DNA from: a virus
Taxonomy: Duplodnaviria > Heunggongvirae > Uroviricota > Caudoviricetes
DNA length: 38,422 nt
Strand: one strand, 5' to 3'
IMG/VR virus record: IMGVR_UViG_2925919700_000005
Coordinates: 1 to 38,422 of that record
Shown one piece after another: positions 369 through 37,538 of this stretch. Position 1 is the stretch's first letter. Each line of letters starts with the position of its first letter. Both the position numbers and the translations under genes were made by a program. A model generated the notes under the pieces. That model had not been told where the DNA came from, did no database searches, and saw only the letters and a list, made by a program, of their open reading frames with translations.

Positions 369-667
369 GATTTGCCCTCGCGTGAAAAATATTTTCGATT
401 ATTTATAAAAAAGACTTGACAAAATCAAAAGGTACTGATCCACGGGTGAAATAAAGCGAGTTTTCGGCACCCCGGTTTTTGATGTGCGTGTGAGATTTCA
501 AAACAGGTGCAGTGCAGCCCACCAGCGCGGTCGCTACGCGACTATTAACACCAGCCAATCCCTTTCCTCGCCTCGATCTTTCCCTTCGTTATAAAGCGTT
601 TTAGGCGCTCTCCTGAATGCGCAGATCAGATAAATAATTTTACGCAAATTTAATGGAGGATAACCGG

Positions 668-1222
668 ATGAAAGAAGAATTAACCCTTACAGAAATTTCC
701 CGCTTATACGGCTATACAATTAACGCCGCTAAGAAATGGCAAGAACGAGGAATGCCATTTAACACCAATACACGACGCGTACCGCTCAAGGAAGGGACCG
801 AATGGATAGCAAAAAATATCATCAGTCCACTCAGGGAAACTACTGTCAAAGAACAAATTGACGTAGAGAAATTACGCCGCGAGAGAGCATTAGCGGACGC
901 AGCCGAACGAGAGAACCAGGAAGCAATGAATCTCCTGATTCCCGTCGGTTATATAGAACAGCAACTAGCGGAATATTGCGGGAAAGTGAAGCAGACTATT
1001 TTGCAGATCGCCACAATCGACGCTTTAGAAATTATCGAATCTGCCACTGACCAGAAAACATTGAAGAATAAGCTAAGGGAGATCATCGAGCGTCGTTTAA
1101 ATGAAGTAGGGGACTTGTTCGAAAATGCAGATTTGGGAGAAGACGAGGAAGAAGAATTACCATTAATGGATGAACCGGAAGAACAAGAACCAGAAGAAGA
1201 CGATGAATTTGATGTGTCTTAA
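668..1222 (+). CDS. terminase small subunit-like DNA-binding protein (lambda Nu1-like N-terminus, acidic C-terminus)
   Basis: N-terminus LTLTEISRLYGYTINAAKKWQERGMPF resembles the Nu1 winged-HTH (Nu1 has ...IRTIQNWQEQGMPV, recalled from memory). Start moved to ATG 668, which has a GGAGGA SD; the track start is 653. Confidence 0.55.
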   Translation: MKEELTLTEISRLYGYTINAAKKWQERGMPFNTNTRRVPLKEGTEWIAKNIISPLRETTVKEQIDVEKLRRERALADAAERENQEAMNLLIPVGYIEQQLAEYCGKVKQTILQIATIDALEIIESATDQKTLKNKLREIIERRLNEVGDLFENADLGEDEEEELPLMDEPEEQEPEEDDEFDVS

Positions 1223-1316
1223 AACGCGTTATAAATAATAGTGAGAAAGATGTTGAACGGGTCAACGTCTACGGGGGAGAACATCCCCCGCTTAACTTTT
1301 AAGAGGATATAAAACT

Positions 1317-1851: not shown

Positions 1852-1877
1852 GGGACTCTTCGGAGTCCCTTTTTTTA
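1852..1877 (+). terminator. Rho-independent terminator (UUCG-loop hairpin + T7)
   Basis: GGGACTC-TTCG-GAGTCCC followed by TTTTTTT; abuts the 3' end of the leftward gene 1875..2816. Confidence 0.7.
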
Positions 1878-2816
1878 TTGGCAGTAAGAAAAGTTAGTAC
1901 CGTACATTTCATCATGAAGCATTGCAGCATTGCGTTTCTGTTCTTCTTCCTCATCTTCTACATCACTAGAAAAATGAGATTTGCCCTTAAAAGAACGAAG
2001 TAATTGCAGTGCAGCCATCGGATCACGCATCACATCGATTTTCAATTCTACTTCATCATTTGCGGCCTCATCAGCCGCGTTTTCAACTACTGCTACCGGA
2101 GCAACTTCTTTAGCTTTCAGTTCTTCAATCTCAGATTTCTGTGCTTCGATAATCTGGTCTTTTTCTTCCAGTGCAGCTTTCAGTTCTGCGATCTGTGCTT
2201 CCAGTGCAGCAAAGCGATCTTCAACAACCGGAGAAACAGCATTCACCTGTGCTTCCAGTTCCAGAAATGCTTCGCAAGATTCAATACGTTCTTTCTCTTC
2301 ACCTTCATAAGCAACCAGTTCTACAACTTCTTTTTCGGTAGCGTGGCTGTTAAAGAATACAGCAAAGTAAGGATTGCCAGATTTAGTGAAGTTCAGTTTA
2401 GCTTTTCCGGTAACTTCTTTACGACGACCGAAGGTGATCTGGCAATCAGCGGTATCCTGAAAATCCATGTTAGGAGCGGAAACGATAGCAGTATCACCAG
2501 CAATAACCAGGTGGAACAGTTCAGAAGAGTTCTTAACGGTAAAAGTAACGATGTGGTCTACTGCAACGTCTTTAGCAGGTTTAACGCGGTCGATTGCTTT
2601 ACGAATGCCGTTAGGCAGTTTACCGTCAACACCAAAGCCAGCCGCGATCAGTGCTTCACGATGTGCTTTAAAGCCAGCGAAAGCGGATTTCTGCTGTGCA
2701 AAGGAAACATGAGCAACAACTTTCGGCTGAATCTTCTTGTTTGCTTCTGTGCCAAATTTGATAACTGCTTTAGCGTTGGTTACTTCGTTAGTGAAAAAGT
2801 TAGCGGAAAATAACAT
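1875..2816 (-). CDS. hypothetical protein (313 aa) with central coiled coil and acidic C-terminal region
   Basis: Long ORF with strong AGGAG SD 9 nt upstream of the ATG; heptad-like segment EAQIAELKAALEEKDQIIEAQKSEIEELKAKE; plus-strand ORFs inside it are treated as shadows. Confidence 0.7.
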   Translation of the reverse strand: MLFSANFFTNEVTNAKAVIKFGTEANKKIQPKVVAHVSFAQQKSAFAGFKAHREALIAAGFGVDGKLPNGIRKAIDRVKPAKDVAVDHIVTFTVKNSSELFHLVIAGDTAIVSAPNMDFQDTADCQITFGRRKEVTGKAKLNFTKSGNPYFAVFFNSHATEKEVVELVAYEGEEKERIESCEAFLELEAQVNAVSPVVEDRFAALEAQIAELKAALEEKDQIIEAQKSEIEELKAKEVAPVAVVENAADEAANDEVELKIDVMRDPMAALQLLRSFKGKSHFSSDVEDEEEEQKRNAAMLHDEMYGTNFSYCQ

Positions 2817-2928: not shown

Positions 2929-3111
2929 TTAGTAAACCTCTGCGGTTATCTTTACTTTAATGTCATACTTCTTTAAGAGTTTGTGGAAGGTTGATTGATC
3001 AATACCTTCACCTTTAAACCATTCACCCATCACTACATCAGGTGTCAGTTCAAAATAACGCTTTGCCATTTCTAAAACGATTTCACGAGTGAACTTAACA
3101 GGTCGTGCCAT
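2929..3111 (-). CDS. small hypothetical protein (60 aa)
   Basis: AGGAGG SD immediately upstream (minus strand); ATATAAATAATAGTGAG box ~55 nt upstream. Confidence 0.55.
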   Translation of the reverse strand: MARPVKFTREIVLEMAKRYFELTPDVVMGEWFKGEGIDQSTFHKLLKKYDIKVKITAEVY

Positions 3112-3246
3112 CTTGAATCCTCCTAAATCTGGATTAATGATTTCTTAAAAAAGAGCGTTAACCGCTCACTATTATTTATATGGGGATTGTATTTTATTTT
3201 TCAACCCCTCACACTTATCTCTTATATATGTATTTATAACAGAGAT

Positions 3247-3403
3247 ATGTTAAAATGTTATTCAGATGTTATCAGACGTGTTAAATGTGTTAAACCGCAG
3301 CACGAATTGCTAAAGCGGAGAGCACGAATTAACCAAATTGATGTATATTCAATCAATTTAGCAAAAAGGCATAGCACTTTTTGCTAAAGCGGTGAGCATT
3401 AAT
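3247..3403. repeat. Phased TGTTA repeats plus two ~24-bp direct repeats (TTGCTAAAGCGG(A/T)GAGCA...)
   Basis: TGTTA recurs five times at ~9-12 bp spacing (3248-3293); TTGCTAAAGCGGAGAGCACGAATT (3307-3330) and TTGCTAAAGCGGTGAGCATTAATT (3380-3403). Confidence 0.6.
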
Positions 3404-3630
3404 TGAGCTATGAATTGTAAAGATTTGTTACAAGATTTTCTCTCAGATCCAAATCTTCACAGGCATATAACAATTTAACACGGTGATAACAATAGGAAGG
3501 AAAATCGGTAAATTTTCACTTTCAATACAAATATTATAACATATTTATCTCGAATTTTCAAGTATACCACCGATCCTACACAGTGTCAACAAAGGATTTT
3601 CAAACCTACACTAGCCCTACACTATGAAAA

Positions 3631-3870
3631 TTGCCCCTGAATTTTGCCCCTGAACCAAAATCCCCTAGATTTCACTATCCCATTTTTGCCCCTGAAACCT
3701 ACTATTTTTGCCCCTGAAATTCTGGGAAACAGTGATTTTGCCCCTCATTTTTGCCCCTGAAATGCCAATAATTGCCCCTGAAAATCTAATTTTTGCCCCT
3801 GAAATTTGCCCCAGAAAAGGATTGGTGAGAAAAACTCTTTATAAAACATTAACTTAGCGAGGGGCAAAAG
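3631..3870. repeat. Iteron-like array of ~9 direct copies of TTTTGCCCCTGAA with one inverted copy
   Basis: Copies at ~3631, 3642, 3683, 3705, 3736 (variant CTCA), 3748, 3772, 3790, 3805 (variant CCAGAA); inverted copy GAGGGGCAAAAG at 3859-3870; spacers are 10-30 bp and irregular. Confidence 0.8.
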
Positions 3871-4012
3871 CGGGGGATCGGGTGTGCATAGATATTATAT
3901 AACACATTCGCTACGCTCATGTGTAAAACCAAAAACAACAAATAACCAAAAAGATATTAGGAGGGCGTAGCCCGACTGCGCGAAGCGCTAACCAATTACT
4001 TCTAGTAACACT

Positions 4013-4240
4013 AATTTAAACTAGATGATACTAGATGGTCTTAGAAGGAATTAACTAGTTTGCTCGCTCGCTTCGCTCACTCTCAAACGTCTGCGACGCC
4101 ACTGCGTGGCATCGAGAATCACTTCTGAAAGGATTTTCTTGAAAGGGATTTTAAACTAGTTACTAACTGATTCTAGAAAGATAGTAATAATCACTTTGAA
4201 GATAATAGTAGTTAACTGGTTACTAGATGATTCTAGATCA
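4013..4240. repeat. Three copies of a ~17-25 bp ACTAGATGAT(A/T)CTAGA-type direct repeat flanking a GC-rich structured core
   Basis: ACTAGATGATACTAGATGG (4020-4038), AACTAGTTACTAACTGATTCTAGAAAG (~4153-4180), AACTGGTTACTAGATGATTCTAGATCA (~4212-4238); GC-rich inverted repeats in 3961-4110. Confidence 0.6.
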
Positions 4241-4266
4241 CTTTAATGATCATGAAAGGTATTGGT

Positions 4267-4296
4267 TATCCCTTCGGGATTGCAACCTTCGGTTGC
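4267..4296 (+). other. Two tandem UUCG-tetraloop hairpins
   Basis: ATCCC-TTCG-GGAT and GCAACC-TTCG-GTTGC back to back. Confidence 0.5.
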
Positions 4297-4500
4297 TAAA
4301 TTGCTTCCGGATTATTATTTCTCCAAAAGAAAGATTCTTATATTCTAAAGATACTTCTTCGTTTTGATGATGATTTAATCAAAATCTATGAAGGAGGCGA
4401 AGCCGACTGAATACCAATTCCTTTCAAATTAGACAAAAATTTCTCGTTATAAATAATAGTGAACTTACTTTGATTCACTTTCTTTTAGAGGATTTCCACT

Positions 4501-4953
4501 ATGATCAATACTAAAACTCCTTTCATTCTTCTGGGTCTGAACCATGATGATAATCTGGCTATGATGCATGTTTTCGCTAATCGTGGTTATAACATCATTC
4601 GTCATTCCGAAGACTCCAATTTCTCAACTGCTTTCTATGCTCTTAAACGTAATGGTCGCCCTACGGTGATCGTAGACTGCTTTACTGATGAAGGTCGTGA
4701 ACAATACAACAACATTCCGGCAATTATTGTTCGTGATGACCTGCCGTTTGATGTTCGTGAATATGACGTTGATTTAGGCTCTTACTATGGGATCGCCGAT
4801 CTTGACCAGATTATGGCTGATTATGGTAAACAACCCGCTCAGGAAGCCCCAGAACACGATGAACAAGACGAAGATGACGACGACTACACACCAATCTGTT
4901 TCTCTTCTCACGGTGGCTTCTACGGTTACGATGAAGGCTTAGATATGCTGTAA
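4501..4953 (+). CDS. hypothetical acidic protein (150 aa); N-terminal pattern faintly resembles a receiver/flavodoxin-like fold
   Basis: GAGGA SD; CGTTATAAATAATAGTGA box 40 nt upstream; C-terminal run EHDEQDEDDDDY; alternating hydrophobic strands FILLG / YNIIRH / VIVDC / PAIIV. Confidence 0.6.
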   Translation: MINTKTPFILLGLNHDDNLAMMHVFANRGYNIIRHSEDSNFSTAFYALKRNGRPTVIVDCFTDEGREQYNNIPAIIVRDDLPFDVREYDVDLGSYYGIADLDQIMADYGKQPAQEAPEHDEQDEDDDDYTPICFSSHGGFYGYDEGLDML

Positions 4954-4975
4954 TTTAGGTCAACCCTTTGGCGTC

Positions 4976-5017
4976 TTGTCAAGGGGTATTGACAAAATTT
5001 TCTGACTTTTTTATGAT
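4976..5017 (+). promoter_or_regulatory. Sigma70-like promoter (TTGACA, 17 bp spacer, TATGAT) overlapped by an inverted repeat TTGTCAA-N6-TTGACAA
   Basis: -35 TTGACA at 4989-4994, -10 TATGAT at 5012-5017; inverted TTGTCAA at 4976-4982; further TTGACA-like boxes at 5026 and 5045. Confidence 0.45.
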
Positions 5018-5073
5018 TATCGCACTTGACAATTTTGAACCTATTTGACCTAGATTTGTAAAGAGGATGTAAC

Positions 5074-6508: not shown

Positions 6509-6742
6509 TCAAAAACCTGTTGCTTCTACGATCTGACCATCACCGATCTGAACATAGAATTTAATGTCTAACTTCTTAATATTCTTATAGAATTGGGCGA
6601 TTGAGATCCCATGTTCACTAAGAATCTGTTCTTTCGCTTCCTTACCACGATCCGCTGTATAATAAGCGTAGGCAATATCAGCCATTTGTTCAGCGTTAAA
6701 ACGGGCAGGACGACCGCGAGTAGCTTTAGTAGTCATAGTCAT
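6509..6742 (-). CDS. small basic protein with RGRP (AT-hook-like) motif; putative DNA-binding
   Basis: GGAGA SD; N-terminus MTMTTKATRGRPARF. Confidence 0.5.
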   Translation of the reverse strand: MTMTTKATRGRPARFNAEQMADIAYAYYTADRGKEAKEQILSEHGISIAQFYKNIKKLDIKFYVQIGDGQIVEATGF

Positions 6743-6770: not shown

Positions 6771-7373
6771 TTATTTAGAGGACTTACATTTTATCGGAAA
6801 AAGTTCTCCATCGTCAATACTCATAAAGAACTCTGCCTTAATCCCGTACTTCTTCAACCGTGAATAGTATGTACCCCGACTTATATCAACCTTGCGAAGC
6901 ACTTCAAAGAACCCTTTAGGATCGTTGTAATAGTGGCTATAACGCACGTTAGCGAGTTCAACGAATAGTTCCCTTGTATCACCATAGCCTTTCTTGAAAG
7001 CCTCGTTACGATAGCGTGTAATTGCGTGATTCAATCTCTTCTGTTTCAACACTTCTCGGATCGGCTTCCACTGCAACCGATAGATAGGACCGTCATCCAC
7101 TCGATAATAACGCTTGATATCAAAATCAAACCAATCTCGGACTCTCCGAAACTCTGTATGTGATGTTCTATGCTTCTTAAAGAAGTTGTGAACGTCTGTA
7201 TAACCATTATCGCGGTAAAACTCTATTAAAATCTCTTTCGCTTCCTCACGACTAAAGCCAGATGTTGTGTAGTCGGTTTTTAAATGCTTATGCTTAACTG
7301 GTAAACGATATTCATGATCGGTACAAGACAAGGCTAATTCTAATTCATCTCTTTGTTGCTGATTAATTAGCAT
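6771..7373 (-). CDS. hypothetical protein (200 aa), transcribed divergently from the terminase large subunit gene
   Basis: AAGGGGGG SD upstream of the ATG (minus strand); basic and Tyr/Arg-rich; no recognisable family. Confidence 0.6.
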   Translation of the reverse strand: MLINQQQRDELELALSCTDHEYRLPVKHKHLKTDYTTSGFSREEAKEILIEFYRDNGYTDVHNFFKKHRTSHTEFRRVRDWFDFDIKRYYRVDDGPIYRLQWKPIREVLKQKRLNHAITRYRNEAFKKGYGDTRELFVELANVRYSHYYNDPKGFFEVLRKVDISRGTYYSRLKKYGIKAEFFMSIDDGELFPIKCKSSK

Positions 7374-7458: not shown

Positions 7459-9363
7459 ATGAAACTGATTTCAAATAAGGCAAAATTAAAAAAGATTCTT
7501 AAAAATATCTCTGCGGCAATTCGCCCACCTAAAACGATGAAACCTAGCGAATGGGTAGAGGCTAATGTAGTTGCAACCGATGGTGTTAAAGCCGGATCGC
7601 TAATTAAATTGCATCCCTTCCAACGTGGAATGATGGACGCGATCACCGAAGACCGTAGAAAAATTGTGTTTAAATGTTCGGCACAGTTGGGTAAGACCAT
7701 GATTCTTAACGGAATTATCTTCCATCGGATCGCGAGTAACCCTACTAATATTGGGGTGTTGCAAAGTAACGTTAGAGAACTAAATTCTTGGATCGCTGGT
7801 AAGGTGAAGCCAGTATTAGAGGCAACGCCAGAATTAAAGGCGATGATCACCGACAAATCAGACCGTAATGCCGTTAACAACTCATCGATTATTCAGCTTC
7901 GTAACGGATCATTCATGTATTTCATGTCGCTGAACAGTCCATCACACTTGCGCGGTAAAACACTCCCTTTGATTATTCTTGATGAAGTTGATGCGGCTGA
8001 TGAGTCAGACGAAGGGAACCCGATCCAGCTAGCGGAACAACGCGCAACCACTTTCGGGGAAGATGCAAGGATCGTAATTGCTTCCACTCCAACCGCTCGT
8101 GATGGGGCGATTAACCAACAATGGGAACTCTCGGATAAGAGAAAATATCATGTCGTTTGCCAGCATTGCGGACACAAGCACGTAATGGAATGGAGTAACG
8201 TACATTTCGATTGGCATACGATTAACGGTAAATCATTACCCAACCCAGATACAGCCGTTTACCGTTGCCCTGAATGTGAAACCGACTGGACCGAAGGGGA
8301 TCGCCTACGTGCTGTTGCTCAGGGAGAATGGGTCGCCACCGAACCAAACGCGGAAGTAATCGGTTTTCATGCTAACCGCCTTATGTCTCCGTTTAGTTCT
8401 ATCCGTGCGTGTGTGGTGGACTTTGCTGATAGCTACGCGAATATGTCGCTGGCAACGTTCTATAATGTGGTGCTCGGTGAAACCTTCGATGATCTTAACG
8501 AAGACCGCACAGCCGACGAATTAGAAACGCTGAAAACTGATATTAGCCTAGACAATATTCCTGATGATGTACTGGCTCTGGTTGGTGGAGTTGACCAGCA
8601 AAAAGACCGTCTGGAATCTACCTTGCTGGGTATTTCTCGTAAAGGGCTATGCGTAGTTGATCACCGATCATTCTATGATGTGAACTGCGAACGCCACGAA
8701 TCACCAGCATATAACCAGCTTTACAACTTCCTGAAAGCGAAATTCTATACCCGATCCGGTCAACGAATCCCGATGTTATCTGCTTTCGTGGACTCATCGA
8801 ACGGACGAGCTACAAACGTGATCTATCGATTCTGCACACAATGGCAAAACCTAACAGCCATTAAAGGGGCAAGCAATGTTGATGCTCCAATCCTTCCGGT
8901 CAAGGACACAAGAACGGGTGGTTTTACTCTTAAAATTCTGGGCGTAAACAACCTTAAGACGATGATCCGTGAAATGATTAACCGGAACTTGAGAGACAGC
9001 GATCCTCATACGGTCTTCCAGATTGGTGACGTTCCTGATGACTATTGCGAGCAATTGTTATCTGAACAGTTGAAACGGCAGGGTAATACCACACGTTGGG
9101 TAAAAGTTGGTCAGCAACGAAACGAGGCTCTCGACTGCCTGGCTTACTCCTATGCTGCTTCTCGCCATGTACTCAATAAAATGTCATGGGAAAAACTCGA
9201 AGCCATCAAAGATAGTTTGAACCGTGAACCAGAAGAACCCGTAGAAGCTCCTAAATCGCAATCTAACGAGCAAATAGAAGAAACTAAGCCAATCACACGA
9301 CCGCAACGTCAAAACATCGCCAGACGTCCAAATAGAGGCCGTAGCTGGGTAACATCGTTCTAA
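7459..9363 (+). CDS. terminase large subunit (lambda gpA-like ATPase/nuclease)
   Basis: Walker A CSAQLGKT and Walker B LPLIILDEVD; Cys/His cluster CQHCGH...CPEC; 634 aa, immediately upstream of the portal gene. Confidence 0.9.
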   Translation: MKLISNKAKLKKILKNISAAIRPPKTMKPSEWVEANVVATDGVKAGSLIKLHPFQRGMMDAITEDRRKIVFKCSAQLGKTMILNGIIFHRIASNPTNIGVLQSNVRELNSWIAGKVKPVLEATPELKAMITDKSDRNAVNNSSIIQLRNGSFMYFMSLNSPSHLRGKTLPLIILDEVDAADESDEGNPIQLAEQRATTFGEDARIVIASTPTARDGAINQQWELSDKRKYHVVCQHCGHKHVMEWSNVHFDWHTINGKSLPNPDTAVYRCPECETDWTEGDRLRAVAQGEWVATEPNAEVIGFHANRLMSPFSSIRACVVDFADSYANMSLATFYNVVLGETFDDLNEDRTADELETLKTDISLDNIPDDVLALVGGVDQQKDRLESTLLGISRKGLCVVDHRSFYDVNCERHESPAYNQLYNFLKAKFYTRSGQRIPMLSAFVDSSNGRATNVIYRFCTQWQNLTAIKGASNVDAPILPVKDTRTGGFTLKILGVNNLKTMIREMINRNLRDSDPHTVFQIGDVPDDYCEQLLSEQLKRQGNTTRWVKVGQQRNEALDCLAYSYAASRHVLNKMSWEKLEAIKDSLNREPEEPVEAPKSQSNEQIEETKPITRPQRQNIARRPNRGRSWVTSF

Positions 9364-20615: not shown

Positions 20616-21944
20616 CTGAGAGATCCCCTCATAATTTCCCCAAAACGTAACCATGTGTGAATAGATTTTGAGTAAGCAGGGTTGCAGCCACGAGTGAGTC
20701 TTCCCTTGTTATTGTGTAGCCAGAATGCCGCAAAACTTCCATGCCTAAGCGAACTGTTGAGAGTACGTTTCGATTTCTGACTGTGTTAGCCTGGAAGTGC
20801 TTGTCCCAACCTTGTTTCTGAGCATGAACGCCCGCAAGCCAACATGTTAGTTGAAGCATCAGGGCGATTAGCAGCATGATATCAAAACGCTCTGAGCTGC
20901 TCGTTCGGCTATGGCGTAGGCCTAGTCCGTAGGCAGGACTTTTCAAGTCTCGGAAGGTTTCTTCAATCTGCATTCGCTTCGAATAGATATTAACAAGTTG
21001 TTTGGGTGTTCGAATTTCAACAGGTAAGTTAGTTGCTAGAATCCATGGCTCCTTTGCCGACGCTGAGTAGATTTTAGGTGACGGGTGGTGACAATGAGTC
21101 CGTGTCGAGCGCTGATTTTTTCGGCCTTTAGAGCGAGATTTATACAATAGAATTTGGCATGAGATTGGATTGCTTTTAGTCAGCCTCTTATAGCCTAAAG
21201 TCTTTGAGTGACTAGATGACATATCATGTAAGTTGCTGATAGGTTTCCAGTTTTCCGCTCCTAGGTCTGCATATTGTACTTTTCCTCTTACTCGACTTAA
21301 CCAGTACCAACCCAGCTTCTCAACGGATTTATACCATGGCACTTTAAAGCCAGCATCACTGACAATGAGCGGTGTGGTGTTACTCGGTAGAATGCTCGCA
21401 AGGTCGGCTAGAAATTGGTCATGAGCTTTCTTTGAACATTGCTCTGAAAGCGGGAACGCTTTCTCATAAAGAGTAACAGAACGACCGTGTAGTGCGACTG
21501 AAGCTCGCAATACCATAAGCCGTTTTTGCTCACGGATATCAGACCAGTCAACAAGTACAATGGGCATCGTATTGCCCGAACAGATAAAGCTAGCATGCCA
21601 ACGGTATACAGCGAGTCGCTCTTTGTGGAGGTGACGATTACCTAACAATCGGTCGATTCGTTTGATGTTATGTTTTGTTCTCGCTTTGGTTGGCAGGTTA
21701 CGGCCAAGTTCGGTAAGAGTGAGAGTTTTACAGTCAAGTAAGGCGTGGCAAGCCAACGTTAAGCTGTTGAGTCGTTTTAAGTGTAATTCGGGGCAGAATT
21801 GGTAAAGAGAGTCGTGTAAAATATCGAGTTCGCACATTTTGTTGTCTGATTATTGATTTTTGGCGAAACCATTTGATCATATGACAAGATGTGTATCTAC
21901 CTTAACTTAATGATTTTGATAAAAATCATTAGGGGATTCATCAG
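20616..21944 (-). mobile_element. IS10 insertion sequence, complete (1329 bp)
   Basis: Ends CTGAGAGATCCCCTCATAATTTCCCC (inside end, 20616) and ...AAAATCATTAGGGGATTCATCAG (outside end, 21944); length 1329 bp; encodes the 402-aa IS10 transposase. Confidence 0.97.
20629..21837 (-). CDS. IS10 transposase
   Basis: 402-aa translation MCELDILHDSLYQFCPELHLKRL...HGYVLGKL matches the IS10/Tn10 transposase as I recall it; start is 107 bp inside the outside end. Confidence 0.97.
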   Translation of the reverse strand: MCELDILHDSLYQFCPELHLKRLNSLTLACHALLDCKTLTLTELGRNLPTKARTKHNIKRIDRLLGNRHLHKERLAVYRWHASFICSGNTMPIVLVDWSDIREQKRLMVLRASVALHGRSVTLYEKAFPLSEQCSKKAHDQFLADLASILPSNTTPLIVSDAGFKVPWYKSVEKLGWYWLSRVRGKVQYADLGAENWKPISNLHDMSSSHSKTLGYKRLTKSNPISCQILLYKSRSKGRKNQRSTRTHCHHPSPKIYSASAKEPWILATNLPVEIRTPKQLVNIYSKRMQIEETFRDLKSPAYGLGLRHSRTSSSERFDIMLLIALMLQLTCWLAGVHAQKQGWDKHFQANTVRNRNVLSTVRLGMEVLRHSGYTITREDSLVAATLLTQNLFTHGYVLGKL

Positions 21945-32364: not shown

Positions 32365-32396
32365 AACAAAAGCGCCTCTAGTGGGCGCTTTTTTGT
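32364..32396. terminator. Bidirectional rho-independent terminator between convergent genes
   Basis: AAGCGCC-TCTAGT-GGGCGCTT flanked by an A-run upstream and a T-run downstream. Confidence 0.7.
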
Positions 32397-33886
32397 TATA
32401 TGGCAATTGTTTTAGTTGCATAGCTGAACTTGTCGGTTAGATAATAGCGGATTCTCTCAAGTGCATGTTTTACCGCATAATTTTTATGCTTGACTTTTCC
32501 GTTACGACCGAATATACACAGATGATCGATAAGATCCCAGACCGTTGCAATGTCTTTCGAACCATGTTTACGCAATGCACGACCGATACTCTGACGAACG
32601 ATAGTTGATTCCTTCACGGGATGACCGAAAATAACATGGTGCAAATTCTTAATTGAAACACCAGTAGAGAAAACACCATAGGATGCAACGCAAATGATCC
32701 CTGTTTCCCCTTCCGCTAATTTCTTAAATTCATCACGTTCTTCTGTCTTAACTCCACCGTCAATATAATAAACCTTGTCGTGTACCTTCTGTAACGCGTC
32801 ATACATAAGTTTTCCGTGCTTAGTATTGCGGAACATCAGGAATACGTTTTCTCCCTTCTTAGCGAGTTTTAGCGCCAAATTACAAGCAAACTTATTTCGT
32901 CGTGGATTAGACGTAATATACTTGATCTCTTCCGCATATTCTCTACCCTTAACCGCGCTACATTCCTCATCGGTATAACGAAGGAAAAGACAGTTAATTT
33001 TCAGTTTTGTCACCTGCCCTTCTTCCATCAGGCGGTCAATACTCACGATCTTAGAAATATCACCGAAAAGCCCGACATACTGCATTAAATGGCACTTTGA
33101 TTCTTTCGGGGAACCAGTCATGCCGATCTTAAATTGGCAATGATTCATTCCGTTAATGATATTGGTAATATTTTTGGCACTAGCCTTATGCGATTCATCA
33201 ACTATCAACATTCCATATTGTTTGAACCATTCAGGAGGCATCTTGCACGCTGATTGCCAGGTACTAACCGTGATTAACCTGTCTCCCGGATGTTTCCCGC
33301 TACCACTCATCATTGTATGAATTGCTTCATAAGGGAATAGCCTATAATCGATGAAATCATCCCTCATTTGAACCACTAGCGATGTAGTAGGGACAATGAT
33401 TAACACTTTTCCGGTGTAATGCTCTAAGTACCAACGAGACAGCATACAAGCAATCAATGACTTACCCGCACTGGTAGGAAGAACCAGCATTCTACGGCGA
33501 TTATGAATACCCTGAAAGACTGCCTCCCTTTGATACCAGTAAGGATTGATTTTATTGGAACCGGAATACACTTCTAGGGAATCAATCCATTCATTAATCG
33601 CGTCTTTGGTTACATCTTCCTTCTCAAGCAATCGCGGGTCAATCCAGACTGAATAGCCCATATTTTTAACGAAGACACCCAACGTTTTTAATAGTCCAAT
33701 TGGTAGGGTATTTTCATGCGTAAACAGTCTTATTCGTCCATCCCAGCCGGAATACTTGTAGCGGGGGCTAAACCTAGCCCCTTCAACCTCAAACGAGAAA
33801 TAATCCCTTAATTCCATTCCGATAGAAGGAGAGCAATCAACCTTAACGAAACTGTAATCTTGAAAATGAATTTTAATATCTTGCAT
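32396..33886 (-). CDS. UvsW-like SF2 DNA helicase
   Basis: Walker A LPTSAGKS, IIVPTT, DExH box IVDESH and VWDLIDH; overall resemblance to T4 UvsW as recalled; start set to ATG 33886, overlapping the upstream stop. Confidence 0.8.
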   Translation of the reverse strand: MQDIKIHFQDYSFVKVDCSPSIGMELRDYFSFEVEGARFSPRYKYSGWDGRIRLFTHENTLPIGLLKTLGVFVKNMGYSVWIDPRLLEKEDVTKDAINEWIDSLEVYSGSNKINPYWYQREAVFQGIHNRRRMLVLPTSAGKSLIACMLSRWYLEHYTGKVLIIVPTTSLVVQMRDDFIDYRLFPYEAIHTMMSGSGKHPGDRLITVSTWQSACKMPPEWFKQYGMLIVDESHKASAKNITNIINGMNHCQFKIGMTGSPKESKCHLMQYVGLFGDISKIVSIDRLMEEGQVTKLKINCLFLRYTDEECSAVKGREYAEEIKYITSNPRRNKFACNLALKLAKKGENVFLMFRNTKHGKLMYDALQKVHDKVYYIDGGVKTEERDEFKKLAEGETGIICVASYGVFSTGVSIKNLHHVIFGHPVKESTIVRQSIGRALRKHGSKDIATVWDLIDHLCIFGRNGKVKHKNYAVKHALERIRYYLTDKFSYATKTIAI

Positions 33887-34455
33887 TAGTTCCACTCCAC
33901 ACTTGCAATATTCTTTATATTGTTTAGTGATTTATTGCAGTAGTGGAATGTTTCAGTTTTGCCGTATTCAATCCCGCCTATACCCACATCCAGTAATCTC
34001 TTTATTGCTCTTTCAGTGGCTAAAGCATGTTTCATTGATGGCATTTCACCAGCAAAGACAATATCAAAGTTATGACCGGGATTGCGTACACCCAGATTAA
34101 TGCGTCGCTTGATGATTGACTTTGTTACACCAAATTTACCAATATCCCCTGATTTCATTACATAGAGATAAGGCACACCCGCTTTATATTGAAAGTAATC
34201 ACTTTTGAGACATGCACAGCGTTTACCTTCATTAAGCAGGTTGGTAGCTGATTTGTCGGCTCTATTGCCGCATCGGGTACATGTAAGAGCAATTCTTGAA
34301 TGAAGCCCTTTAAACTCACCCAGAAAGCCATGAAAGACTAACGGTAAGTCCTTCTCTTTGATGTGAGTCAGAATGCGTTGTTCTAATGCCGATGGAGTTA
34401 CAGCACGGGAGGATTTAGGAGTAAAAACAATATCTTTAGCCATTACTGGAATCAT
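33886..34455 (-). CDS. GIY-YIG-like (T5orf172-type) protein with N-terminal zinc ribbon; possible homing endonuclease or DNA-binding nuclease
   Basis: CTRCGN...CAC Cys cluster followed by YLYVMKSGDIGKFGVTKSIIKRR (GIY-YIG-like Y-x-Y...K-F-G-x-T...R pattern). Confidence 0.5.
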   Translation of the reverse strand: MIPVMAKDIVFTPKSSRAVTPSALEQRILTHIKEKDLPLVFHGFLGEFKGLHSRIALTCTRCGNRADKSATNLLNEGKRCACLKSDYFQYKAGVPYLYVMKSGDIGKFGVTKSIIKRRINLGVRNPGHNFDIVFAGEMPSMKHALATERAIKRLLDVGIGGIEYGKTETFHYCNKSLNNIKNIASVEWN

Positions 34456-34609
34456 ATAGACCTCACTTTTTTAACTTATAGGCATAACCTCAATATGGTT
34501 GGTTTGGGATTTAGGGTCGCGTATTATACACATTCAGATAGAGAATGCAATAGTAAGACAATTTTCTCTAATAAATAGTAGTGAGCTTATTATTTTAGAG
34601 GAAACTACT

Positions 34610-35785
34610 ATGAAACTTGCTTACGCTGCCGAAATTCCTTTTGTTAAGAAAACTCGCGGTTTATCGCCGGAAGAGTACCAACAACGAATCATCGCTAAAC
34701 TGGAACCTGCTTTCGTATTTGGTGGATTTATCCTACCGTGGAAGGGTAATCACACTTACTTTCGAATCTACAATTTAGATACACAAGAATATAAGGACTA
34801 CAAATTACGCAAACTGGAAGATACTAACGGGGGTGAGTTACTCCAGACTGAAAAGGCTGTATGGTTGAAAATGGAATCTCGTTGTAATGAGAAGGGAAAG
34901 AAATTCCTCGGATGGCAAGGAGAATGGAAAGGGCGCAACAAGACAAAATCCCGTGTTTTGTGCCCTGAACACAATCAAATCATGACGCCATCTCTATTAC
35001 ATGCTCTCAAAGATGATTTCGATTTTGATTGCAAAATCTGTATGGCTGAAAAATCCCAACGGGTAAGAAGTGGCAAGACTTTTGATGAAGTTATTAAGGA
35101 CAAAGAGACAATCATCAATGCACGTTGCGAGAGTACGCCTTACACCTTCAAAGGATTCATCATAAACACCCCACACCTAAAGGATGTTAAATTTAAAACC
35201 TATTGCAAGACACATAATCACGAATGGGAATCTCATTTAAGATGTGCTGATTCTTTCACTTGTCCGCTTTGCATTAAAGACCAACTGGTGCAACTGTCTA
35301 ACCGGACTTATCAGGGTAAGGCTAGTTTCTATATTCAATTATTAGATGACAAATTTATTAAATTTGGAATCACTACCCGGAAACCAGAAGAACGAATGAG
35401 AGAGCAAACCAGAAAGAGCAACTTCACTCACCGCTTAATCTTTACTCATGAGTTTGAGGATGGTTGGAAAGCCGTTGATTTAGAGCATGAAGTAAAACAA
35501 CGCTTCAAGACTCATGCAGCACCCTACAAAGATTTCAAGGATGGATGGTCGGAAACTCTGACTATTGATGAGTTACCACACTTACAGCAACTGGTTTATG
35601 ACTACCTAACCAATCAACCGGACGAGGCTAATATGTGGGTATCCCAGAAAGATGTATTTGATGACGATACATTCAAGCTACATACTCACTTCTACGGCAT
35701 CAATAAACCGGAATTTTTCTGTATTGATGACGACAGTCCTGATTTAATGGATGAATACTTTAATACTCTCTTAGACGCTGTCTAA
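34610..35785 (+). CDS. multi-zinc-finger protein with C-terminal GIY-YIG/T5orf172-like domain
   Basis: Several C/H clusters (CPEHN...CKIC; CKTHNHEWESHLRCADSFTCPLC) then FYIQLLDDKFIKFGITTRKPEERMREQ; TAATAAATAGTAGTGAG box 25 nt upstream; start set at ATG 34610 (track start is TTG 34499). Confidence 0.55.
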   Translation: MKLAYAAEIPFVKKTRGLSPEEYQQRIIAKLEPAFVFGGFILPWKGNHTYFRIYNLDTQEYKDYKLRKLEDTNGGELLQTEKAVWLKMESRCNEKGKKFLGWQGEWKGRNKTKSRVLCPEHNQIMTPSLLHALKDDFDFDCKICMAEKSQRVRSGKTFDEVIKDKETIINARCESTPYTFKGFIINTPHLKDVKFKTYCKTHNHEWESHLRCADSFTCPLCIKDQLVQLSNRTYQGKASFYIQLLDDKFIKFGITTRKPEERMREQTRKSNFTHRLIFTHEFEDGWKAVDLEHEVKQRFKTHAAPYKDFKDGWSETLTIDELPHLQQLVYDYLTNQPDEANMWVSQKDVFDDDTFKLHTHFYGINKPEFFCIDDDSPDLMDEYFNTLLDAV

Positions 35786-35858: not shown

Positions 35859-37538
35859 TTAAATTCCAAATTCCTGTAATGGACCTGGTATTTCCTCTTC
35901 TGGTTTCCAGTTCTTATCTGTCAGCATGTCTAAACATGGATGCAGAACAAGCCCGTTACTCTCCAGAATCTGCCTATCATTGATAGTTTTCAAATCGACA
36001 AAGATTTGTCCTTTCCTCGTTCCTCTTGAATTTTCTATTACAACTCTCTGGGTCTTTCCATCGATGTATTCCAGTACAAACAAGTTTTTGTTTCTGTCAA
36101 TCCTGCTACACCCGATCCGCTTTAGAGCTTGCTTAATCTTAAACCGGACCTTTAGTCGTTCCTCGTTGTAAACATCTTCTAAATCAAATTCTGCGAGCTT
36201 CTCCCAGCCTTGAGAGTCAACAGAATACATTTCCTCTTCTGCCATCTTGATCTGATTGTAGAGTGTTTCACGCTCGCTATTGAGGGTAGTAATCTGATCG
36301 GCTAGTTCCTTCGTTGCTCCTGTCATAGCAGAAAGGGCAATCAGGTTATCAATCTTGCGTGATATTTCATCAACCTGTACTTTCAACGCCGGAACCGGAT
36401 TAGCCTTATCCTCAGCAATCCAGATTTTATCAGCCAGCAATTGCAATACAGCTTTCTCTAATTGATCACCTCGAAAACTCCAGTTTGGATGCTCGCAATC
36501 AAGTCTACGTGAACGGGTCGCATCACATGTATAACGATACTGGTCAGAACGTTTGTTCGTTCCCTTCACTTTAACCATAGCGCAACCGCAATGATCACAT
36601 TTCAATAGGCCAATACCACTAAGCAGGGGGATCGGTTTAACTTCTTCCTTGTCTCCAAAGTTCCATGCTCTAGCACCAATATTTTTCTTAAGGTGATAGA
36701 ACGTAGCATCATCAATAACACGAGGGTAATAATCCTTTAACTCATAGTTAACACCATCAACAGAGACCTCCTTGATACCAATCAAAGCGCGGGTATGAAA
36801 CAACCTTTCAACCATTGCCCGTGACCATTTTGAATGCTTCTTGTTGCTTACTGCTGGTGGTGGTGCATATGTCTCGTTAAGGTGATCCAGTATTTCGGCG
36901 GTTGAACGTCCATTCTTCCGTAATTCCACAATCTCCTGAACAACAGGGAAGTACACCGGATGAGGCAGCACATAACCGGAAGTGGTATCAGTCCACCACA
37001 TATTCTTTCCAACTTCCTCGATTGCCACTGCCGGATTCTGGGGATTTTCTTGATGCGATTTAATCTTAATCAGTGCGCTTGAATTAGTACGATTGCGCTT
37101 AGTCTGGCTTTCCTCATTACCACGGATGAATAAAAGGATGGAGAACATCAGGTCCATCGGGTTAGCGGTAACAGTATCCAGCGAGTAGATCTTGTTATCC
37201 ATGCCAGTAACAATGGTTATCCCCCTACGGATTATCGAAAGGAATAACTCCTGCGCACTGACAATATCGGCACGGGATAAACGGTCCAAGTTTTCAATGA
37301 ATAGCCAGCTACCAACAGGAACGGATCTACCAATTGCATCAAGGAAACGAGATAGCGCCCCTGTTTTAGAGTTAGCACCTTTAAACGCAGATACACCCAG
37401 ATCCTGATAATCATTTACCAGTTCTAAGTCATACTTTGCCGCAATCTCTCTCGCCATCCTGATTTGTCGTTCATAACTCGAACCATCACTCTGACGCATA
37501 GACGAGAAGCGAATATACGAATATAGTTTAGTTTTCAT
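35859..37538 (-). CDS. large serine recombinase (resolvase/invertase-type catalytic domain + recombinase domain + zinc ribbon)
   Basis: N-terminal YIRFSSMRQSDGSSYERQ (catalytic Ser motif), ENLDRLSRAD, Cys cluster CDHCGCAMV...YRYTCD, C-terminal coiled coil; 559 aa. Confidence 0.85.
   Translation of the reverse strand: MKTKLYSYIRFSSMRQSDGSSYERQIRMAREIAAKYDLELVNDYQDLGVSAFKGANSKTGALSRFLDAIGRSVPVGSWLFIENLDRLSRADIVSAQELFLSIIRRGITIVTGMDNKIYSLDTVTANPMDLMFSILLFIRGNEESQTKRNRTNSSALIKIKSHQENPQNPAVAIEEVGKNMWWTDTTSGYVLPHPVYFPVVQEIVELRKNGRSTAEILDHLNETYAPPPAVSNKKHSKWSRAMVERLFHTRALIGIKEVSVDGVNYELKDYYPRVIDDATFYHLKKNIGARAWNFGDKEEVKPIPLLSGIGLLKCDHCGCAMVKVKGTNKRSDQYRYTCDATRSRRLDCEHPNWSFRGDQLEKAVLQLLADKIWIAEDKANPVPALKVQVDEISRKIDNLIALSAMTGATKELADQITTLNSERETLYNQIKMAEEEMYSVDSQGWEKLAEFDLEDVYNEERLKVRFKIKQALKRIGCSRIDRNKNLFVLEYIDGKTQRVVIENSRGTRKGQIFVDLKTINDRQILESNGLVLHPCLDMLTDKNWKPEEEIPGPLQEFGI

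Follow-up and report, generated by a model that had tools for sequence, protein, structure and literature searches.

What does a small, strongly acidic protein do when it is kept at a fixed place in the control region of a prophage lineage and matches no described family? The question is raised by the gene at positions 4501-4953 of a 38,422-nucleotide (nt) stretch of DNA, hereafter the window (IMG/VR record IMGVR_UViG_2925919700_000005, Caudoviricetes). A sequence-only reading of this DNA had proposed that the 150-amino-acid (aa) product, which we refer to as the acidic protein, is a DNA mimic or anti-defence factor. The analysis instead leads us to favour, tentatively, a non-enzymatic binding protein made of two modules, a predicted globular domain and a disordered acidic tail that would dock on a conserved partner. 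Feature coordinates are collected in Table 1.

A real gene encoding an acidic protein

The open reading frame (ORF), which runs from ATG to TAA, was recovered exactly as first quoted. It has a good ribosome-binding site, with the Shine-Dalgarno sequence 8 nt ahead of the start codon. With 21 Asp and 9 Glu but only 3 Lys and 7 Arg, the acidic protein has a net charge of -20 and an isoelectric point (pI) of 4.17. The N-terminal domain carries a net charge of -8 (pI 4.6), and residues 108-150, of which 6 of 43 are aromatic, carry -12. The acidic, aromatic-rich C-terminal third described from the sequence is thus present, including the segment EHDEQDEDDDDY.

We compared 34 distinct alleles drawn from related loci. 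Mean nonsynonymous (pN) and synonymous (pS) differences were 0.19 and 0.44, respectively, corresponding to a pN/pS of ~0.43 and a Jukes-Cantor dN/dS of 0.34. Because nonsynonymous change is well below synonymous change everywhere across these alleles, the ORF is a real gene under purifying selection, and it is a conserved member of a little-studied prophage family. Damaged alleles also occur naturally (P0075, P0076, P0073, L031, L067); the lesions include a deletion of the N-terminal domain read through from the 5′ untranslated region (UTR), a +1 frameshift into the overlapping 4787-4942 frame, a 20-aa internal deletion and a 28-codon remnant (L067 6145-6399).

A core gene of prophages inserted in ycdX

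The family was found only in ycdX-inserted prophages of Escherichia coli/Shigella, Salmonella enterica and Proteus mirabilis, and all of its members bear the annotation "hypothetical". A profile search extended it to Salmonella and Proteus and no further, and an exhaustive HMMER search of 1.8 billion representatives returned nine matches, all from this same family. The protein had no family match in Pfam, PHROGs, NCBIfam or PADLOC, and when 38 members were scanned singly against Pfam, only scattered insignificant matches appeared (DUF4835, 0.0016; BRCT_3, 0.023). Nucleotide and protein searches found no relative in isolated phages or plasmids, the GTDB species-representative genomes held no member, sequence and fold searches of the PDB found no relative, and literature searches brought up nothing relevant on a ycdX prophage or the RefSeq protein accession.

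A count over 5,426 complete E. coli genomes gave 55 with the gene, 54 with the same type of large terminase (TerL) and 52 with both. Of the two prophages that have the terminase only, the one that we inspected retains codons 1-28 of the gene joined to unrelated DNA; the locus thus holds what a deletion left behind and not a substitute gene. Given its presence in 52 of 54 prophages and the remnant in the inspected exception, the gene is core and not patchy cargo. Its surroundings are likewise constant in three genera, with ycdX followed by the small terminase gene, a variable cassette, a divergent 60-aa gene and ~1.3 kb of non-coding DNA, and then by the acidic-protein gene, a small variable gene, a Rha/Ant-like gene and the large terminase gene. 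About 1% of complete E. coli genomes, together with Salmonella and Proteus strains, carry this prophage lineage, and the acidic protein is one of its few universally retained control-region genes. The family is thus a well-defined orphan, in a setting where small acidic phage proteins that act by binding or mimicry are already known.

A predicted kinase-like domain without a P-loop

Two independent AlphaFold2 runs, based on 25 and 38 sequences, gave the same fold (β1-α1-β2-α2-β3-α3-β4-...-α4), with a predicted local distance difference test score (pLDDT) of ~75-91 for residues 8-107 and below 45 for residues 111-150. The sequence-only reading had noted alternating hydrophobic strands reminiscent of a CheY or flavodoxin-like fold. 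The prediction bears out an alternating α/β fold in the N-terminal two thirds, and such β-α units are common to CheY-like and flavodoxin-like domains; the assignment to receivers or flavodoxins itself was not supported. Pfam gave no match, and the match to a CheY-3 profile was insignificant (E = 0.3, residues 4-52). No conserved acidic pair follows strand 1, the positions where a receiver has its Thr/Ser and Lys show no conserved residue of either kind, and the predicted models contain only four main strands. At D59, the Asp that closes strand 3, most homologues have Asn or Gly, which leaves the family without a Walker B residue and without a receiver phospho-acceptor; for the same reason, we rejected a Toprim-like DxD reading of VIVDCFTDEGRE.

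The N-terminal domain is best described, on the predicted models, as a P-loop-kinase-like fold that would lack the P-loop. It contains no GxxxxGK[ST]; in the window, the sequence after strand 1 reads G-L-N-H-D-D-N, and across the family an invariant Gly12 is followed by an acidic loop of variable length (7-11 residues) and sequence, without Lys-Ser/Thr. Identity to P-loop kinases (gluconate kinase, 1knq; T4 dNMP kinase, 1dek; MAGUK guanylate-kinase-like domains) is only 7-15%, and whereas these have Walker A and B motifs, a lid and an NMP-binding domain, the acidic protein is without them and about half the size. With the predicted structure, which had been suggested as a check on the original proposal, Foldseek searches of BFVD and the PDB gave no match at E below 0.04.

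Within this domain, L10, G12, R28, N31, N51, T55, R66, Y69, P73, A74, I75 and D102 are invariant. The domain as a whole diverges fast, with pN reaching 0.41-0.45 in the most distant pairs, and its alleles fall into at least four types, between which recombinants occur.

An acidic tail, predicted to be disordered, that ends in a conserved peptide

The densest charge of the protein lies in residues 115-128, where both AlphaFold2 runs gave a pLDDT of 35-45. The polyacidic run differs in length among relatives and is always acidic. It is followed by a C-terminal peptide that, in every full-length member, has the pattern DDDYxP[IV]xFS[SG]-turn-G[FY]xGYx[ES][GA][LF][DEQ]ML-COOH, in which the turn is rich in Gly and Asn. 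Across 38 sequences from three genera, D128, Y129, P131, Y143 and L150 do not vary, and the motif is invariant or near-invariant between E. coli, Salmonella and Proteus proteins that share 37-40% identity overall. In the most distant pairs, pS in the tail is 0.73-0.92 and pN only 0.22-0.29; since synonymous sites are saturated, conservation acts here on the peptide and not on the DNA. A profile search with the 43-aa tail, meant to find the motif on other scaffolds and capped at 8000 candidates, yielded only fragments of the same family among the matches listed.

Acidic tails serve as partner-docking elements in E. coli SSB (..DFDDDIPF), T7 gp2.5 and T4 gp32. The tail of the acidic protein has the same layout as these, a disordered linker, an Asp/Glu run and terminal hydrophobic or aromatic residues. 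SSB, however, has an OB-fold core and an ..IPF end, whereas the acidic protein has an α/β domain, no OB fold and a ..[DEQ]ML end, and its conserved peptide, at 25 residues with an internal DDDYxP[IV]xF element, is longer than SSB-type tails. The [GA][LF][DEQ]ML end also resembles the xL[SD]LF of β-clamp-binding peptides in position and chemistry. The clamp-binding consensus is QL[SD]LF, and T4 has clamp-binding ..LDFL.. tails; none of the 38 aligned family members has the hallmark Gln at position 1.

Reassorting alleles and the search for a phage partner

Nearly every gene near the acidic-protein gene has two to four types of allele, and these are reassorted between relatives, including prophages with the same integration site. 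Across loci L001-L066, TerL has two types (~98% and ~59% identity), Rha three, the 60-aa protein (p60) four and the 77-aa protein (p77) three. We paired gene-side and integrase-side loci for 26 viral contigs and used Mantel tests to compare allele distances with those of 24 other prophage proteins in 27 relatives.

N-terminal domain distances were uncorrelated with p60, Rha/Ant, p77 and TerL (r ~0; Rha, r = -0.04), and correlations with the integrase (r = 0.16) and with a 313-aa protein and its iteron cassette (r = 0.20) were low. The best values, r ~0.5, belonged to two ORFs at the prophage end that are represented in few genomes, and probably reflect lineage structure. No convincing partner therefore emerged among the 24 prophage proteins. 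The lack of covariation with variable phage neighbours weakly favours a partner that is conserved or host-encoded, and it speaks against a matched counterpart from the phage, for example a repressor, an antirepressor or an initiator.

Possible functions of the acidic protein

We consider a non-enzymatic, two-module binding protein to be the most plausible explanation, and hold it with some reserve. The acidic protein would be a core component in the control region of a temperate phage lineage that integrates in ycdX and uses a large serine recombinase. Its first module (residues ~1-110) would be a compact α/β domain of kinase topology that has lost the nucleotide-binding loop and evolves fast in several reassorting allelic types; its second (residues ~111-150) would be a polyacidic tail, intrinsically disordered, that finishes with the conserved aromatic/hydrophobic peptide and its free ..DML carboxy-terminus. 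The gene would be transcribed from a box promoter of its own, along with at least two more small genes of the control region. With its acidic tail and terminal peptide, the protein would occupy a basic/hydrophobic groove on a conserved partner, the likeliest being a host protein that handles nucleic acids or a conserved protein of the phage; the tails of SSB, T7 gp2.5 and T4 gp32 dock on their partners in a similar way. Specificity, oligomerisation or steric blocking would come from the globular domain. The analysis establishes that the gene is real and core, and shows the predicted architecture of its product, the pattern of conservation and the absence of catalytic motifs; the tail as the functional end, a nucleic-acid enzyme as the partner and the time of expression are points that we infer.

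Several observations weigh against this explanation. The covariation test among prophage proteins brought up no binding partner, and tail docking is pure inference. The disorder of the tail could partly reflect the shallow alignment of 38 sequences, and the allele-covariation test is weak, as it covers 27 genomes with population structure. The conserved residues R28, N31, N51, T55, D63, R66 and Y69 could form a small-ligand or catalytic site of a kind that escapes fold searches. Moreover, a tail-less allele (L031, stop at codon 116) and a domain-less allele (P0075) occur naturally, although both may belong to decaying prophages.

The original proposal, that the protein is a mimic or anti-defence factor occupying the DNA site of a restriction or defence nuclease, now appears unlikely. 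Like Ocr, ArdA, lambda Gam, T7 gp5.9 and T4 Arn, the acidic protein is small, very acidic and encoded by a mobile element; its charge (net -20, pI 4.2), its own strong ribosome-binding site and its conserved promoter would suit such a role, and a fast-evolving N-terminal domain with mosaic alleles fits an arms race. Acidic disordered tails can also mimic nucleic acid, as those of SSB, gp2.5 and Hfq do. Ocr-type mimics, however, are rigid, ordered arrays of carboxylates, whereas the acidic protein combines an α/β fold with a charge cluster that lies mainly in a segment predicted to be disordered and probably not on a rigid, DNA-shaped surface. PDB searches found no likeness in sequence or fold to solved mimics, a group to which Ugi and p56 also belong, and the conserved element of the tail is a specific aromatic/hydrophobic peptide and not charge alone. 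The proposal is not supported in the form in which it was made. As for anti-defence more broadly, accessory (moron) genes of that kind are patchy and sit at variable loci; the acidic-protein gene is core and fixed in position, and neither plasmid leading regions nor lytic phages yielded a relative. This distribution does not follow the usual accessory anti-defence pattern, although Ocr is also core in T7-like phages. It seems to us quite doubtful that a dead kinase-shaped domain and a peptide imitating SSB or clamp-binding tails together make up a new host-takeover or anti-defence class, in which the peptide (DDDYxPIxFSS..GFYGY.EGLDML) would obstruct or take over a central node of the host's DNA metabolism or immunity.

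A role within the phage, as an accessory factor of replication or of lysis-lysogeny control, is a possibility to be taken seriously without being probable. The protein could recruit a host replisome component to the iterons, with a function like that of lambda P or SPP1 G39P, act as a directionality factor of the serine integrase, or assist an Ant/Rha-like antirepressor. Such a role is suggested by the fixed position of the gene between an iteron array with its cognate 313-aa protein and an Ant/Rha-like gene, by its core status across three genera and by a promoter box common to other control-region genes; in addition, we recognised no helicase loader, primase or polymerase among the scanned prophage ORFs. 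Directionality factors of serine integrases are not known to share a fold. The missing covariation with the integrase, with the 313-aa protein and iterons, and with Rha does argue against a phage-internal role, as do the acidity of the domain, which makes DNA binding of its own unlikely, and the absence of any likeness to known loaders or directionality factors. An enzyme or ligand binder built on the kinase-like fold, for instance a kinase or phosphotransferase remnant or a sponge for signalling nucleotides with the tail as a secondary feature, is disfavoured by the missing catalytic motifs, and we think it very improbable.

Returning to the two-module binding protein, its conserved peptide on an acidic tail offers a precise and cheap experimental handle. 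Should its target be a host protein of DNA metabolism or defence, the tail would represent a new inhibitor scaffold; should it be phage machinery, the tail would help to decode a little-studied replication and immunity module.

A conserved promoter-like box marks a small regulon

Ahead of the acidic-protein gene lies a 15-nt box, TATAAATAATAGTGA, of which the window contains exactly three copies without mismatch, each preceding a gene. The copies sit roughly 40-75 nt upstream of the gene starts, that of the acidic-protein gene at a distance of 53 nt. Allowing up to 3 mismatches, we counted 9 matches against 2.5 expected, a number reached in 0/100 shuffles. A sigma-70-like site reported by a promoter scanner (TAGACA-16-AATAAT, 4430-4457) overlaps the box at the acidic-protein gene, and the box has no consistently placed -35 element. 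It begins with TATAAATA, which we take to be the same octamer as the -10 element of T4 late promoters.

In 30+ relatives, those in Salmonella and Proteus among them, the orthologue has the box ahead of it. In Salmonella, it also stands ahead of two other control-region genes, and the related locus L003 has copies at about 8094 (+) and about 9438 (-). The control-region genes so marked form a small regulon that is kept across genera. The conserved early box of the sequence-only reading is accordingly real, and the word "early" was an assumption. The short 5′ UTR between box and start codon is near-invariant even in relatives whose coding sequence is only ~37% identical. A GTGAA..TTCAC hairpin following the box was considered as an attenuator and dropped, as it is not conserved in relatives.

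Between the acidic-protein gene and the next gene (4957-5060), we noted a strong sigma-70-like promoter (TTGACA-17-TATGAT, 4989-5017) embedded in repeated operator-like TTGACAA(A/T)TTT / TTGACCTAGATT sequences, one copy of which is inverted (4952-4963). It therefore seems that the 110-aa and Ant/Rha-like genes that follow are under separate control.

Repeats upstream of the promoter

The acidic-protein gene had been described as preceded by a repeat-rich leader. The repeats are present, in a gene-free stretch of 1.4 kb (3112-4500); because they lie upstream of the box promoter, they belong to a control or origin-like region and not to the mRNA leader of this gene. The stretch contains iterons, TT(T)GCCCCTGAA, spaced 13/21/42 nt apart, and ACTAGATGATTCTAGA-type repeats at 4019-4238.

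The iteron array co-occurs perfectly with the gene for the 313-aa protein (1875-2816, minus strand), a coiled-coil, acidic-tailed protein that we call cc313. Among 30 related loci with enough upstream DNA for the comparison, 16 have both and 14 have neither, the latter carrying other genes at that position. Together, the iterons and the 313-aa gene look like an exchangeable cassette of a site array and its cognate binder, either origin and initiator or operator and repressor; alternatively, the iterons could be terminase-binding sites. This control region, with its cassette, box regulon and mosaicism, may prove of more interest than the acidic protein itself.

Two further elements were seen in the gene-free stretch. 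The motif GGAGG-[short GC hairpin]-CGACTG occurs at 3960-3980 and 4391-4408 (GGAGGGCGTAGCCCGACTG and GGAGGCGAAGCCGACTG), and a version in L067 (6041-6060, GGAGGGCTATGCCCGACTG) keeps the stem and changes the loop; these repeats may be a structured RNA or DNA element. UUCG-type hairpins are found at 4268-4295. An Rfam scan of the upstream region gave nothing meaningful, including no c4-like regulatory RNA.

Prophage context

In essence, the window represents a single temperate prophage; at its left, it is 97-99% identical to E. coli chromosomes, where the element interrupts ycdX. Besides the genes in Table 1, portal, capsid, tail and M15 endolysin genes are recognisable. Large terminases in the phage collection reach at most 44.5% identity, and no isolated phage is close.

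Table 1. Positions of the acidic-protein gene, its parts and other features of the window
Feature	Positions	Strand	Basis or remark
Nu1-like small terminase	653-1222		phrog_57
Box TATAAATAATAGTGA, second exact copy	1230-1244	+	Upstream of 94-aa membrane-protein gene (1317-1601)
60-aa protein (p60)	2929-3111	-	Shared C-terminal motif
Box TATAAATAATAGTGA, third exact copy	3166-3180	-	In inverted repeat I1; upstream of divergent 60-aa gene
Iteron array, 7-8 copies of TT(T)GCCCCTGAA	3629-3817	+	Repeats; 695-870 nt upstream of acidic-protein gene
Box TATAAATAATAGTGA, promoter-like -10 region	4448-4462	+	Exact copy, upstream of acidic-protein gene
Short conserved 5′ UTR (..GATTCACTTTCTTTTAGAGGATTTCCACT)	4463-4500	+	Read from sequence; Shine-Dalgarno AGAGGA at 4487-4492
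Acidic-protein coding sequence, stop codon included	4501-4953	+	ORF, homologues, purifying selection
Residues 1-110, globular α/β domain	4501-4830	+	AlphaFold2
Domain elements (residues) β8-11, α19-27, β31-34, α41-51, β55-60, α63-69, β74-76, α98-107			
Residues 111-125, disordered linker and polyacidic run (QPAQEAPEHDEQDED)	4831-4875	+	pLDDT 35-45, alignment
Residues 126-150, conserved C-terminal peptide DDDYTPICFSSHGGFYGYDEGLDML-COOH	4876-4950	+	Alignment
77-aa protein (p77)	6509-6742	-	Shared C-terminal motif
200-aa protein	6771-7373	-	Shared C-terminal motif
GpA-type large terminase (TerL)	7459-9363		
IS10-type insertion in tail-gene region	20629-21899		DDE_Tnp_1 transposase 20629-21837 (-), RNA-OUT 21830-21899
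UvsW-like helicase and two CapR-domain genes, accessory cassette	32396-35785		
Large serine recombinase	35859-37538	-	

Because an IS10-type insertion lies inside the tail-gene region, this copy of the prophage may be defective. The small and large terminase genes are ~6 kb apart, and the interval holds the whole control region, the iterons and the acidic-protein gene. One of the CapR genes in the helicase cassette also has a MUG113/T5orf172 domain, and the cassette is present in only ~10/27 related contigs.

Three proteins of the region, of 60, 77 and 200 aa, had no family match in library scans and end in a shared motif (..HKLLKKYDIKVK.., ..FYKNIKKLDIKFY.. and ..YYSRLKKYGIKAEF.., respectively). 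They may be paralogous small DNA-binding regulators.
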